Shown piece by piece: positions 53,894-56,237 of a stretch of 64,000 bases of DNA. The stretch comes from Escherichia coli (lineage in GTDB: Bacteria > Pseudomonadota > Gammaproteobacteria > Enterobacterales > Enterobacteriaceae). Made by a program: the position numbers and the translations under genes. The notes below the pieces were generated by a model. That model made no database searches and was not told the DNA's origin. It saw only the letters and a list, made by a program, of their open reading frames with translations. The DNA is taken from NCBI RefSeq assembly GCF_003018255.1, contig NZ_CP027440.1; one strand, given 5' to 3'. Positions within the stretch are counted from its first letter, which is position 1, and the number at the start of each line of letters is the position of its first letter.

Positions 53894-54877
53894 TTACCTT
53901 CCCGCTCTCCAGGCAACATCCCGTAGCGCCGATCGCGCAGCCTCGCTGATACCACCTAACTGAAAAAATCCGTGGATAACGCCAAGGTAGCGTTGGCAGG
54001 TGCATTGCACTCCTTGCCCTGTCATGCGGTGATACAACGCTTCACCTTCATCGCAAAGTGGGTCGTATTCAGCGGTAATGATATGTACAGGTGGCAAGCC
54101 ATTGAAATCATCGCGCCAAAGAGGGCTGGCTTCAGGATGCCTGCGTTCAATGCCTGGCAGGTACATCTCAAAGCCGCTCAGTAAAGTGTCGCGTGTGATG
54201 ATGTAATCGTGACCATTGCGTATGTAGCTTTCGAAATGCGCAGTCGCATCAAGCATGGGATAAATTAAGATGAGTTGTGCTGGTTGCCACTCGCCAGCAC
54301 GCTTCAATCGCAAAGCAGTTACCAGCGCCAGATGCCCTCCCGCACTGTCACCGGCAAGAGTTATTCGTTGTTTATCAACGCCGAGTCGTTCGGCGTGTTG
54401 CCGGACTAATTCTGCACCTCGTTGTGCATCATCATGGGCGGCGGGGAAAGTATGTTCCGGTGCCAGCCGATACTGGACGGCAATAATCCGACATTGCCCG
54501 TAATAGGCTAACTGGCGCAGCTGGTTGTCGTGAGTTGCGAACCCGCCGCTAACAAAACAGCCACCGTAGTAATAAATTATCGTCGGGAGTAATGTCGGGG
54601 CATTCAGCGGTGACACTATTCGTAAGGTCATCCCTTCAAGTTCGATAGTCTGAATATCTACCCGCGTTTCTGTCTCACCCGCAAGGACAGCGCTGGCGAT
54701 ATAGCCCTCTCTGCGCTGCGTAATACTTTGTTGGCGCGATGAGGGGCGACCCGCAGCGATAAACTCTTCGACTAACTCTGCAATTCCTTTTTCCAGTGCC
54801 ATAGTAGAACTCATTTTGCTGTATGAATGTACAGTTTTATACACCCGTTTTTGCTGGATGGATACAGGGAAATTCAC
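53894..54877 (-). CDS. Alpha/beta-hydrolase esterase/lipase of the hormone-sensitive-lipase (Aes-like) family
   Basis: ORF 53894..54877 minus; nucleophile elbow GDSAGG; oxyanion-hole region YYGGCF where HGGG is usual; start may be an internal Met (MSSTMALEKG) around 54814. Confidence 0.75.
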   Translation of the reverse strand: MNFPVSIQQKRVYKTVHSYSKMSSTMALEKGIAELVEEFIAAGRPSSRQQSITQRREGYIASAVLAGETETRVDIQTIELEGMTLRIVSPLNAPTLLPTIIYYYGGCFVSGGFATHDNQLRQLAYYGQCRIIAVQYRLAPEHTFPAAHDDAQRGAELVRQHAERLGVDKQRITLAGDSAGGHLALVTALRLKRAGEWQPAQLILIYPMLDATAHFESYIRNGHDYIITRDTLLSGFEMYLPGIERRHPEASPLWRDDFNGLPPVHIITAEYDPLCDEGEALYHRMTGQGVQCTCQRYLGVIHGFFQLGGISEAARSALRDVAWRAGR

Positions 54878-54976
54878 GGGCGTGAAAAATCTGGAAAGCG
54901 CCTCGCAAATGTAAAGACAAACCCGGCAGAGACGTGGTTTTGCTGGAGCACTATCAGTAAGCTAGTGGTTTCAAGG

Positions 54977-54993
54977 GTACGTCAATGACGTAC
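54977..54993. promoter_or_regulatory. 17-bp perfect palindrome (gtacgtca-a-tgacgtac) upstream of the toxin gene; candidate operator
   Basis: Read directly; about 40 bp upstream of ATG 55031; a tataat hexamer lies at 55024-55029. Confidence 0.45.
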
Positions 54994-55030
54994 AAAAAGG
55001 ATTGTTACTCTAAGCCAATGGCGTATAATT

Positions 55031-55342
55031 ATGCTCTTCATCGAAACGGAAATTTTTACTGAAGATGTTCAAAAACTGCTGACCGACGATGAATTCAGTC
55101 GTTTTCAGTTTTTCCTGGCCTTGAATCCTGACTATGGTGAGGTAATACCTGAAACTGGTGGGTTAAGAAAGGTTCGATGGGTGTCAGGAGGAAAGGGGAA
55201 ACGTGCTGGTGTCAGGGTTATTTACTTTCATCAGGTTAAACATTATGAGATCAGATTACTGCTTATTTATCGTAAGGGTATTAAAGATGATCTGTCTCCC
55301 CAGGAAAAAGCAATGCTCCGGTTGTTAAATACGAGGTGGTAA
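55031..55342 (+). CDS. RelE/ParE-superfamily toxin, HigB-2-like (103 aa)
   Basis: ORF 55031..55342; motif TGGLRKVRWVSGGKGKRAGVRVIYF resembles the Vibrio HigB-2 toxin family; abuts an HTH gene. Confidence 0.7.
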   Translation: MLFIETEIFTEDVQKLLTDDEFSRFQFFLALNPDYGEVIPETGGLRKVRWVSGGKGKRAGVRVIYFHQVKHYEIRLLLIYRKGIKDDLSPQEKAMLRLLNTRW

Positions 55343-55633
55343 ATGGATAAGGCACTTTTTGAGCGGTTGACTCACAGCATGGCCCAGATGAATGAAATTA
55401 TTGAAGGAACGCGACAGCCTTCGCGGACTTTTGAAGTTGATGCTATGAAAATCAAAGAAATACGCCGCGCTTCAGGGTTGTCACAATCTAAATTTGCCGA
55501 TCTTATTTCTGTAAGCGTAGACACGTTGCGTAACTGGGAGCAGGGGCGACGTTCACCGACCGGGCCTGCAAAGGCTTTGCTGCGAGCGATTGCCAATGAT
55601 CCGCAACATGTGCTGCAAGCACTTAACCGTTAG
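55343..55633 (+). CDS. HTH (XRE-like) antitoxin, HigA-2-like (96 aa)
   Basis: ORF 55343..55633; start codon directly follows the toxin stop; HTH segment IRRASGLSQSKFADLISVSVDTLRNWEQGRR. Confidence 0.7.
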   Translation: MDKALFERLTHSMAQMNEIIEGTRQPSRTFEVDAMKIKEIRRASGLSQSKFADLISVSVDTLRNWEQGRRSPTGPAKALLRAIANDPQHVLQALNR

Positions 55634-56237
55634 AGGCATGGTTATGCCATACAGAAAGCACCAGCATTCAGAACTCCTGTGAAAGCGGCGTAGTGCCACC
55701 TGCTCAGGAGTTTTGCTATGACCCGTAATCGTGCTGACCGTTGCCACCCTATGATGCGATTAAAAAAACTCATCGTCGCGCCGATGATTGACGTCAATGC
55801 TATCGGATGATACCGGGGGTGTTCCGGAAGGAATTCCTTGTTTCCCGAACTGTTACCAACAAAATTATAACGATAAGCAAGTAAAGACCGGTTGGTGGCA
55901 GTACTGACCGGTCTGTGATGGATGATTAATTTCACCTTAAATCCTGGTGCTGTTAGGATGCTGACATTTTTCGGCTACACCATTCAGATTATGCAAATAA
56001 AGATCCAATCAAAAGATAAATATCCCTGAATATAATATATTTATAGCACCCATATCTCATCCTGGGCGATAACCCAACCATTTTTGATTAACAAATGAAA
56101 CAACTGCAACGTTCTTATTATTTCTGGAAAACGTCTCGCAAAAACAAAACAGCATGCAAAAATCCGCTTTTTTTAAATGATTTTTCGGCGTAATTTTCGC
56201 ACATACATTAATGAGTAATATATGTAAGGTATTGGTA

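Follow-up and report, generated by a model that had tools for sequence, protein, structure and literature searches.

Introduction

Some E. coli genomes carry three genes between fabY (yiiD) and yiiE that K-12 lacks, encoding an esterase, a small RelE/ParE-like protein and a helix-turn-helix (HTH) protein. How did these genes come to be there, and what are they likely to do? A sequence-only reading of a 64,000-nucleotide stretch of an E. coli chromosome (hereafter the window) described positions 53894-56237 as an accessory insert holding an esterase, a HigB-2-like toxin-antitoxin (TA) pair and, upstream of the pair, a palindrome that might be its operator. Here we follow up that description by computational analysis. 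The esterase, the TA pair and the palindrome are present in the window as described (Table 1), and the finding is real, ordinary and of a kind already known. The three genes very probably form a vertically inherited Enterobacteriaceae cassette, lying between fabY and yiiE/yiiF/fdhE and consisting of an esterase gene with a LexA box and a HigB-2/HigA-2 operon, which about half of E. coli have kept and K-12 has lost.

Table 1. Features of the cassette and its surroundings (window coordinates)
Feature	Position	Strand	Description
Inverted repeat	53848-53876	none	perfect 13-bp arms, 3-nt loop; between convergent fabY and esterase
Esterase	53894-54802	-	from the ORF list; RefSeq start at ATG 54802, 302 aa
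LexA (SOS) box	54819-54834	none	CTGTATGAATGTACAG, CTGT-N8-ACAG
20-nt motif, copy 1	54890-54909	+	TCTGGAAAGCGCCTCGCAAA
O1 palindrome	54977-54993	none	17 bp, perfect arms; upstream of toxin
O2	55011-55025	none	degenerate second copy, TAAGCCAATGGCGTA; directly upstream of toxin start
HigB-2-type toxin	55031-55342	+	ORF, 103 aa
HigA-2/NadS-type antitoxin	55343-55633	+	ORF, 96 aa
Fused remnant of two small genes (70 aa, 92 aa)	55718-55876	+	intact in other strains
20-nt motif, copy 2	56123-56142	+	96 nt upstream of yiiE
yiiE	56238-56456	+	ribbon-helix-helix (RHH) protein, RefSeq annotation; right neighbour of the cassette
vapC (PIN) relic	56512-56631	+	C-terminal 41 residues of a VapC toxin gene
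20-nt motif, copy 3	56562-56581		within the vapC relic (56512-56631, +)

The esterase and its LexA box

The minus-strand gene, whose longest open reading frame (53894-54877, 327 aa) starts from a GTG, is assigned to the hormone-sensitive-lipase (HSL) family (Abhydrolase_3) as the ortholog of Salmonella nlhH (STM14_4846 / STM4032). Its product matches the NCBIfam LipP1 HSL model at 1.2e-70, under the family cut-off, and also scores under the NCBIfam cut-offs for chloramphenicol hydrolase and Aes; the closest PDB structure is Est8 (4ypv, 4e-51), and identity to solved esterases is ~40-45%. The catalytic triad, comprising Ser153 (in the GxSxG elbow G151-D-S153-A-G-G), Asp247 (DPL) and His277 (HGF), aligns with that of solved HSL esterases and is invariant across 12 orthologs. 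Both features on which the alpha/beta hydrolase had been recognized are present, namely the GDSAGG elbow and the sequence IIYYYGGCF at the HGGG position of HSL-family enzymes. In PDB alignments YGGC lines up with the HGGG of the oxyanion hole, a motif that is itself absent from this group, with YGGC in the six E. coli alleles or clusters examined and HGGC in other genera. Because YGGC replaces HGGG, the activity of the E. coli esterase is uncertain. The inverted repeat between the esterase gene and the convergent fabY is a possible bidirectional terminator, on which the terminator scan was silent because the stem is AT-rich. An Rfam search of 53000-57000 gave no match.

The esterase ATG is 16 nt from the LexA box and the toxin ATG 196 nt, with the box upstream of both. 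The pattern CTGT-N8-ACAG occurs only once in the 64-kb window, and once, at the same position, in 21/21 loci that were fetched and retain the 5' end of the esterase gene. With a scoring matrix derived from known E. coli LexA boxes, which themselves score 13.5-27.4, the box (TGCTGTATGAATGTACAGTT) reaches 21.4 bits, compared with 13.9 for the next best site in the window and a maximum of 19.5 in 100 shuffles; it is a good match to the 20-bp SOS-box consensus and lies near a promoter. The Salmonella nlhH is a published SOS-regulon gene: nlhH and higB-2 have one common SOS box, are induced 15-fold and 8-fold, respectively, by nalidixic acid, and respond to DNA damage via LexA and RecA (PMC8072944). 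Because the box is just upstream of the start codon, LexA probably represses the E. coli esterase gene, which DNA damage would then induce. SOS control of the toxin operon may be indirect, since the box belongs to the promoter of the esterase gene, which is transcribed divergently, and is distant from the toxin start.

The HigB-2/HigA-2 pair

The 103-aa protein is identified by homology as a HigB-2 toxin of the RelE/ParE superfamily, orthologous to Salmonella SehC (higB-2). The earlier suggestion of a HigB-2-like toxin is borne out by phmmer matches to PDB HigB-2 chains (E 1.5e-19 to 1.5e-18, residues 2-99, ungapped), and identity to V. cholerae HigB-2 is ~45% over 98 ungapped residues. All four catalytic residues of the V. 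cholerae toxin (Arg51, Arg64, Tyr82 and Lys84; PMC5416850) are kept in the ungapped alignment, as R49, R62, Y80 and K82. The match to Pfam RelE (PF06296) is weak (E 0.006), an NCBIfam search with the toxin gave no match, and PADLOC gave no hit, either for the toxin or among the small ORFs of the locus.

The 96-aa partner is likewise identified as a HigA-2/NadS-type HTH antitoxin, orthologous to Salmonella SehD. It scores 60.7 bits with the NCBIfam NadS model (cut-off 60), matches HTH_3 (3e-9) and MqsA_antitoxin (2.6e-4) in Pfam, and matches HigA-2 (1.8e-8, residues 31-89) and Atu1735 (1.3e-10) in the PDB. A 30-residue N-terminal tail is followed by a C-terminal XRE-type HTH domain. A literature search turned up no source for the name 'NadS'.

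The genes stand in reverse order, toxin first, and are directly adjacent as previously described: the TAA stop of the toxin gene (55340-55342) is followed by the antitoxin ATG at 55343, and the antitoxin Shine-Dalgarno sequence (GAGGTGG) lies inside the toxin gene 3' end. The toxin ATG is not preceded by a Shine-Dalgarno sequence. In E. coli the sequence that best fits a sigma-70 promoter, TTGTTA-16-TATAAT, was rejected as the toxin promoter because it abuts the toxin ATG and lacks conservation in other genera; a putative promoter with its -35 element inside O1 fits the other genera better. Toxin expression may be very low because of the missing Shine-Dalgarno sequence and the position of the sigma-70 match, and antitoxin excess is expected because the antitoxin gene has a strong ribosome-binding site and the toxin gene has none.

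The probable operators

O1 reads GTACGTCA-A-TGACGTAC, with 8-bp perfect arms around one central base, which agrees with the 17-bp palindrome reported earlier. The operator of V. cholerae HigA2 was footprinted as TGTACGC-N5-GCGTACA (PMC11006873), and O1 (GTACG-N7-CGTAC) has the same half-sites and spacing. Its position relative to the ATG, -54 to -56, is kept across six genera, at all orthologous loci, and where its arms change between genera they change symmetrically, from GTACG..CGTAC to ATACG..CGTAT. The second site, O2, includes the block CCAATGGCGTA, which is conserved in all genera with single-base variants in two loci, namely CTAATGGCGTA in L014-type Salmonella loci and CCAATGACGTA in Erwinia, whose O2 is a near-perfect palindrome (CTACGCCAATGACGTAC). 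Two palindromes have also been described in the Salmonella sehCD promoter (PMC3868539, retracted).

At the sequence level, O1 matches the inverted-repeat operators of the HigB-2/HigA-2 family. It is the probable binding site of the antitoxin dimer, and the autoregulatory role proposed for the palindrome is strongly supported by its likeness to the footprinted operator. Might a different regulator bind here, or could the palindrome have arisen by chance? Its TGACGT core resembles sites for other factors, and of the four residues by which V. cholerae HigA2 contacts bases, the E. coli antitoxin keeps two (Asn72 and Arg77) and differs at two (Arg68 to Asp, Glu71 to Arg). We nevertheless consider this highly improbable, since O1 has the half-site and spacing of an operator both crystallised and footprinted with HigA2, travels with the TA pair even to a non-syntenic Erwinia locus without the esterase, has symmetric arm substitutions, and is accompanied by a second related site 33 bp away.

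Ancestry of the cassette and the state of K-12

The esterase-toxin-antitoxin trio also occupies the interval from fabY to fdhE in Salmonella, Citrobacter, Enterobacter and Klebsiella, in the same order and orientation. Between genera, dN of the cassette is 0.08-0.24, while dS is at least as high as in flanking genes, a value that is only a lower bound because dS is saturated. Within E. coli, the trio is present in 2636/5426 complete genomes (48.6%). The locus is therefore not universal in the species; had it been, the sequence-only reading would have been refuted.

In K-12, contrary to the layout given in the sequence-only reading, yiiD is not directly followed by yiiE; 852 bp with a pseudogene stub lie between fabY and yiiE. 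In a K-12-type genome, window positions 53831-55840 (2010 bp) are replaced by 474 bp of unrelated AT-rich DNA, which is the left end of a two-gene element of O157-type strains after a 2046-bp deletion. K-12 carries a decayed remnant of this different two-gene element, which replaced the trio. The two-gene element and the cassette occur together in one strain, where the 3' end of higA2 is duplicated, and recombination at this duplication could bring about loss of the cassette.

These observations bear on whether the segment is a recently acquired island, brought in between fabY and yiiE through horizontal transfer. Such an island would fit the lack of the cassette in K-12 and in roughly half of the complete E. 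coli genomes, the GC content of the TA pair (0.41-0.45, compared with 0.52-0.56 in the flanks, local GC content being one of the checks that the sequence-only reading proposed), and the frequency of the HigB-2 family on plasmids, with matches in 757 plasmid records. However, the order, orientation and position of the cassette are identical in five genera and its synonymous sites are saturated between them; there is no integrase or IS among the ORFs of 53894-56237, as had been noted, and a repeat scan found no flanking direct repeats. The plasmid copies of HigB-2 are almost all <60% identical, those that are >=99% identical are on "plasmid" records of 1.0-4.9 Mb that are probably mislabelled chromosomes, and a replacement that was then followed by a deletion accounts for the state of K-12. 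Recent acquisition is very unlikely and has been largely refuted.

Of the accessory insert, the variable presence at the yiiD-yiiE junction and the absence of the three genes from K-12 stand, and the insertion does not: variability within E. coli comes from loss, not gain, and K-12 is the derived state. The segment is an old enterobacterial cassette, already studied in Salmonella (nlhH, sehCD/higB-2), and not a new insertion. The low GC content of the TA pair is compatible with an ancient foreign origin.

The proposed working of the cassette

As a vertically inherited cassette, the locus would work as two units. The minus-strand unit is the esterase gene, which in E. coli would be repressed by LexA and induced by DNA damage. 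The plus-strand unit is a reverse-order type II TA operon of the HigB-2/HigA-2 family, orthologous to Salmonella sehCD (higB-2). By homology, the toxin would be a ribosome-dependent mRNA endonuclease, neutralised by the N-terminal tail of the antitoxin, and the HTH domain of the antitoxin dimer would bind O1 and the weaker O2, repressing the operon. The sequence comparisons show the identities of the genes, the conserved catalytic residues, operators and LexA box, the synteny and the haplotype distribution; that in E. coli the toxin is toxic and is neutralised, that the antitoxin binds DNA and that the SOS response induces the locus is what we infer from relatives.

Reports on the toxicity of the Salmonella ortholog conflict. 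SehC overexpression was reported to be non-toxic, and sehD to be deletable with no growth or virulence phenotype (PMC3868539, retracted), whereas an independent study found the module functional, toxic and neutralisable (PMC4366850). In a common Salmonella lineage, the antitoxin N-terminus is frameshifted beside an intact toxin gene, which argues for weak or no toxicity there, and in some E. coli strains the toxin gene itself has a stop codon or frameshift. Together with the missing ribosome-binding site of the toxin gene and the presence elsewhere in K-12 of another, expressed NadS-family gene (PMC12350097), these points suggest that the pair could be domesticated or decaying, with an effectively inert toxin and an HTH protein (NadS) that serves mainly as a stand-alone transcription factor. 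We think this unlikely, though it deserves serious consideration: the toxin keeps the four catalytic residues and evolves under purifying selection between genera (dN 0.16-0.24, dS saturated), 93% of the copies in E. coli are >=99% identical to the window, the Salmonella module was active in the independent study, and the chief evidence for inertness comes from a retracted paper.

The 20-nt motif and the right-hand neighbours

A 20-nt motif occurs three times in the window, compared with 0.01 expected, and its core TGGAAARYGSCTCGCR is kept beside the esterase in four other genera. A sigma-54 promoter was considered, given the sigma-54-like GG-N10-GC spacing, but the motif lacks the conserved C of TGGCAC, and the published site in the K-12 yiiD-yiiE spacer is for the RpoS holoenzyme, not RpoN. 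Also considered was a mere relic of vapC coding sequence, one copy being in frame with the VapC C-terminal relic; yet intact Salmonella vapC is without the motif, and the esterase-side copy is better conserved than its surroundings.

The vapC relic was detected by tblastn with a Salmonella PIN toxin (46% identity, E 2e-5) and ends at a stop codon. YiiE, 48% identical to the Salmonella RHH partner of a PIN toxin, has a relative in the YiiF-like antitoxin of VapB type, which some Salmonella pair with a PIN toxin. The yiiF gene is deleted in the window (~577 bp missing relative to strain JL05). The fused remnant results from another deletion of ~394 bp (window 55771/55774 corresponds to KE41 3572/3967); the intact 70-aa and 92-aa ORFs were seen in KE41, JMK_KBN3987 and Klebsiella spallanzanii, and gave no match in family searches or PADLOC.

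A broader proposal is that the esterase and the adjoining TA slot form one co-regulated DNA-damage unit with an exchangeable slot, and that the motif TCTGGAAARCGSCTCGCRAA is the operator of YiiE/YiiF. The slot would be filled by HigB-2/HigA-2 in most lineages and by a YiiF-like RHH protein with a PIN toxin in some Salmonella, and the motif, which occurs next to the esterase as well as upstream of both yiiE and yiiF, would let the orphan VapB-like YiiE/YiiF cross-regulate the esterase and the TA operon. We regard this proposal as improbable.

Significance and comparison with known systems

The value of these assignments is mostly for annotation. RefSeq often calls the 103-aa gene 'hypothetical protein' and its partner 'NadS family protein', and both are now tied to the structurally characterised HigB-2/HigA-2 and to the Salmonella sehCD/nlhH literature, including SOS induction. 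The direction of evolution is also corrected, the reference strain K-12 being derived and about half of E. coli strains ancestral at this site, so that work on K-12 has missed a probable LexA-regulated esterase and TA pair. The fabY-fdhE stretch contains TA modules in different degrees of decay (higBA-2, and yiiE and yiiF with vapC relics), and is a small, clean example of how orphan antitoxins originate.

Among family IV esterases (Est8 4YPV, EST2 1EVQ and E. coli Aes 4KRX), the esterase shares the GDSAGG elbow, the DPL-type aspartate and the HGF histidine, and differs in the oxyanion-hole motif, which is HGGG in those enzymes but reads HGGC in the present ortholog group, or YGGC in its E. 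coli members. LexA-controlled TA and stress loci of E. coli include dinJ-yafQ, tisB/istR and yafNO. The present locus likewise has an SOS box adjoining a TA operon, with a Salmonella ortholog that is induced by DNA damage, but here the box is at the promoter of a divergent esterase gene.

The V. cholerae HigB-2/HigA-2 (VCA0468/VCA0469; PDB 5JA8, 5JAA, 5J9I and 8A0X) has the same toxin-first operon, the same antitoxin plan (N-terminal tail and C-terminal XRE-type HTH) and the GTACG-N7-CGTAC operator. The E. coli module differs in its fixed core-genome chromosomal site in place of the Vibrio superintegron, in apparently having two operator sites where V. cholerae has one, in a toxin 7 residues shorter at the C-terminus, in two of the four base-contacting antitoxin residues, and in the LexA box shared with the divergent esterase gene.

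Salmonella SehCD (STM4032.2N-STM4033; SL3979-SL3980; STM14_4847 higB-2) is the positional ortholog and also lies between fabY and fdhE beside the esterase, with a 302-aa esterase, a 103-aa toxin and a 96-aa antitoxin in that order from fabY to fdhE. SehAB, which by published description is also beside the esterase in LT2 and 14028s, was not seen in any locus fetched here and was rejected as the ortholog, SehB having 142 aa and being related to K-12 HigA; SehCD is the true ortholog. The toxins are 65-68% identical and the antitoxins ~87%, the SL1344 module of 603 bp has the same length in the E. coli window, and the termini deduced from published SL1344 cloning primers (MQFIETE..., ...MLNERW-stop and MDKVLFERL...) match those of the E. 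coli pair. The Salmonella locus retains the LexA box, O1 and O2, and the 20-nt motif, whereas the oxyanion-hole motif is YGGC in E. coli and HGGC in Salmonella NlhH, the candidate -35 element inside O1 is weaker in E. coli (ATGACG compared with TTGACG), and the TATAAT abutting the toxin ATG is specific to E. coli.

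Esterase and toxin-antitoxin genes

The window carries three genes between fabY (yiiD) and yiiE, and both the ORFs and homology show that the sequence-only reading was correct in describing them as an esterase, a HigB-2-like toxin and its HTH partner. The esterase is a member of the hormone-sensitive-lipase family, and its translation has the motif GDSAGG, with IIYYYGGCF at the family's HGGG position. Its top PDB match is Est8 (4YPV, 4e-51), and the NCBIfam model LipP1 gives 1.2e-70, yet under the family cut-off. Ser153, Asp247 and His277 show no variation among orthologs. At the oxyanion motif (residues 79-82, window 54566-54577), all six of the E. 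coli alleles or clusters examined have YGGC; orthologs of other genera have HGGC, and the family at large HGGG. The His-to-Tyr change seems to be fixed in E. coli.

The toxin aligns ungapped over residues 2-99 with Vibrio cholerae HigB-2 chains in the PDB (E 1.5e-19), and in this alignment R49, R62, Y80 and K82 are the counterparts of Arg51, Arg64, Tyr82 and Lys84, which form the active site of the Vibrio toxin as defined by alanine substitutions (PMC5416850). Because it matches the Pfam RelE model weakly (PF06296, E 0.006) and none of the NCBIfam models, it is frequently labelled 'hypothetical protein'. The antitoxin reaches the cut-off of the NCBIfam model NadS (60.7 bits, cut-off 60), contains an XRE-type HTH domain (HTH_3, 3e-9), and matches V. 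cholerae HigA-2 at 1.8e-8. Its ATG is preceded by GAGGTGG, and there is no Shine-Dalgarno sequence upstream of the toxin ATG.

Positions of the cassette genes, regulatory sites and gene remnants (window coordinates unless a comparison locus is named)
Feature	Position	Strand	Details
Esterase ORF	54802 (RefSeq ATG) to 53894 (3' end)	-	302 aa; ORF calling and RefSeq
LexA box	54819-54834		CTGTATGAATGTACAG; 16 nt from esterase ATG
20-nt motif, three copies	54890-54909, 56123-56142, 56562-56581	+	TCTGGAAAACGCCTCGCAAA
Palindrome O1	54977-54993		GTACGTCA-A-TGACGTAC
Site O2	55011-55025		TAAGCCAATGGCGTA; degenerate second copy of O1
Toxin ORF	55031-55342	+	103 aa; ORF calling
Antitoxin ORF	55343-55633	+	96 aa; zero gap after toxin ORF; ORF calling
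Fused small-ORF remnant	55718-55876		downstream of antitoxin gene
VapC (PIN) toxin C-terminus relic	56512-56631		41 residues
Two-gene element	1620-3434 of L025 (E. coli 06-3462)		297 + 304 aa, adjacent; identical in O157:H7 PV15-279

A probable ancestral cassette lost from K-12

The same trio is found between fabY and fdhE, with order and orientation kept, in three Citrobacter species, one Enterobacter, Klebsiella spallanzanii and several Salmonella lineages. Compared with the proteins of the window, the esterases are 76-77%, the toxins 65-76% and the antitoxins 85-88% identical, and FabY and FdhE reach 90-94%. In comparisons across genera, the cassette genes have dN values of 0.08-0.24 and saturated dS, and the flanking genes have dN values of 0.02-0.07, with a dS of 0.7-1.7 in fabY, dtd and fdhE, a pattern which fits long residence under weaker constraint and does not fit recent transfer. 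Within the species, the toxin-antitoxin pair is present in 2636 of 5426 complete E. coli genomes, always as a single copy, and 2448 of these copies are at least 99% identical to that of the window.

In a K-12-type genome, 474 unrelated AT-rich bases stand in place of window positions 53831-55840 (2010 bp). This filler aligns colinearly to the left end of an element of two genes that can occupy the locus instead and is known from O157:H7-type strains; the K-12 haplotype equals the O157:H7-type element haplotype minus 2046 bp. The element is full in 1062 complete E. coli genomes and reduced to its first 65 bases in about 2000. Its two proteins have no significant Pfam match and no match in NCBIfam or PADLOC; some records call one of the genes 'transposase'. 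Since the K-12 filler is a deleted form of the element haplotype and the trio is syntenic across genera, K-12 represents the derived state. Strain JMK_KBN3987 contains both the element and the cassette, with an extra ~100-bp copy of the higA2 3' end at the right edge of the element, and recombination between the two 3'-end copies would remove the esterase together with the toxin-antitoxin pair. The sequence-only reading had regarded the genes as an accessory insert with an unclear acquisition route; synteny, saturated dS and the K-12 deletion haplotype point instead to an ancestral cassette lost by K-12. The pair may plausibly have come from a mobile element in the distant past, which its low GC would fit; the HigB-2 family as a whole is common on plasmids, with matches in 757 records, nearly all at <60% identity.

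Decayed neighbouring genes

Of the three copies of the 20-nt motif (chance expectation 0.01), one precedes higB2, another precedes yiiE, and the third is at the expected yiiF upstream position, yiiF itself being absent from the window through a ~577-bp deletion. Citrobacter, Enterobacter, Klebsiella and Salmonella all keep the motif core next to the esterase, and the motif could function as an operator bound by RHH proteins or as an element of a promoter. In some Salmonella, the HigB-2/HigA-2 slot is occupied by an 82-aa RHH protein that shares 70% identity with E. coli YiiF, followed by the gene for a 124-aa PIN (VapC-like) toxin. E. coli retains relics of the PIN toxin C-terminus after yiiF or yiiE, and taken together with the Salmonella RHH-PIN pair, they make yiiE and yiiF appear to be orphan antitoxins of the VapB type. 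These observations cover window 56457-56670, L002 4384-4984 and L012 5180-5802 (L002 and L012 being comparison loci).

A further deletion in the window, of ~394 bp, has fused two small ORFs. Both genes are intact in KE41 (L003 3515-4071), JMK_KBN3987 (L026 3427-3979) and K. spallanzanii (L010 6690-7245), encoding a Cys-rich 70-aa protein and a 92-aa protein, neither of which matched a family in NCBIfam or PADLOC.

Functional status of the toxin-antitoxin pair

This type of locus is already known and annotated, with orthologs studied in Salmonella, and by sequence the pair is orthologous to Salmonella sehCD. The latter (STM4032.2N-STM4033, adjoining STM4032) was described in a 2013 paper, since retracted, as 72% identical to an E. 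coli 'HigB' and as lacking both toxicity and a virulence phenotype (PMC3868539). In an independent study, the Salmonella module proved functional when toxicity and neutralisation were tested (PMC4366850); the cloning primers of that study encode MQFIETE..., ...MLNERW* and MDKVLFERL..., and the SL1344 module is 603 bp long, exactly the length of the pair in the window.

The negative report from the retracted paper would favor a module that is functionally inert as a toxin, as would the missing ribosome-binding site of the toxin gene, the toxin pseudogenes of some E. coli strains, and a common Salmonella lineage (L014-type) in which the toxin gene is intact and the antitoxin N-terminus frameshifted, suggesting that the toxin is harmless there. 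A candidate promoter could be read in the same way: the top sigma-70 match of the region, TTGTTA-16-TATAAT (55002-55029), ends 1 nt short of the toxin ATG, and transcripts from its E. coli-specific TATAAT would begin within the toxin ORF and miss the start codon, possibly providing for antitoxin expression only. Nevertheless, with the catalytic residues of the toxin conserved, purifying selection and one positive toxicity report from Salmonella, we consider an inert toxin unlikely.

Variation within the cassette was seen in several loci. In a sample of 60 E. coli copies of the pair, about 5 contain indels or truncations, and the KE41 toxin gene (L003 2832-3143) has an internal stop codon. In Salmonella enterica L014 (also L015, L018 and L019), the esterase gene survives as a truncated pseudogene with a frameshift (L014 4288-4771), and only an 81-84-aa HTH product is called from the frameshifted antitoxin gene (L014 5313-5599).

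The divergent regulatory region

Alignment of the 228-bp divergent intergenic region with those of Citrobacter (three species), Enterobacter, K. spallanzanii and a non-syntenic Erwinia locus reveals four conserved blocks (O1, O2, the LexA box and the 20-nt motif) amid diverged DNA. With a position-weight matrix based on known LexA boxes of E. coli, the LexA box scores 21.4 bits, the top of the window (runner-up 13.9; maximum in 100 shuffles 19.5), and the sites of orthologous loci score 17-23.6 bits. The LexA core pattern occurs exactly once, at an identical position, in all 21 fetched loci retaining the esterase 5' end, and is absent in the five without it. The SOS link of this locus type is already published for the Salmonella orthologs: in a genome-wide study of S. 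Typhimurium, nalidixic acid induced nlhH (STM14_4846, the esterase ortholog) 15.1-fold and higB-2 (STM14_4847) 8.05-fold, the two genes being divergent with a single common SOS box, which lies 13 bp from the nlhH ATG and 184 bp from that of higB-2 (PMC8072944). The LexA-box inference therefore agrees with experimental data on orthologs.

The 17-bp palindrome O1 had been guessed to be an operator, which is now well supported as a prediction by its conservation across genera and by the architecture of the V. cholerae HigA2 operator. Relative to the toxin ATG, the palindrome sits at -54 to -56 in syntenic loci, and at -66 in the Erwinia locus. E. coli, Enterobacter and Erwinia share the form GTACG-N7-CGTAC; in Citrobacter, Klebsiella and Salmonella it is ATACG-N7-CGTAT, with both arms changed symmetrically. 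The Erwinia counterpart of O2 is a near-perfect palindrome. In KE41, the conserved O2 block carries a G-to-T change (GGCGTA to GGTGTA; L003, about 2815).

The sehCD promoter was likewise reported to contain two palindromes, with 10-fold autorepression by SehD and promoter binding in EMSA (retracted PMC3868539). Footprinting and crystallography define the V. cholerae HigA2 operator as TGTACGC-N5-GCGTACA (PMC11006873), and O1 shares its GTACG-N7-CGTAC identically. Of the four base-contacting residues of V. cholerae HigA2, Arg68 and Glu71 are replaced by Asp and Arg in the antitoxin here, while Asn72 and Arg77 are kept.
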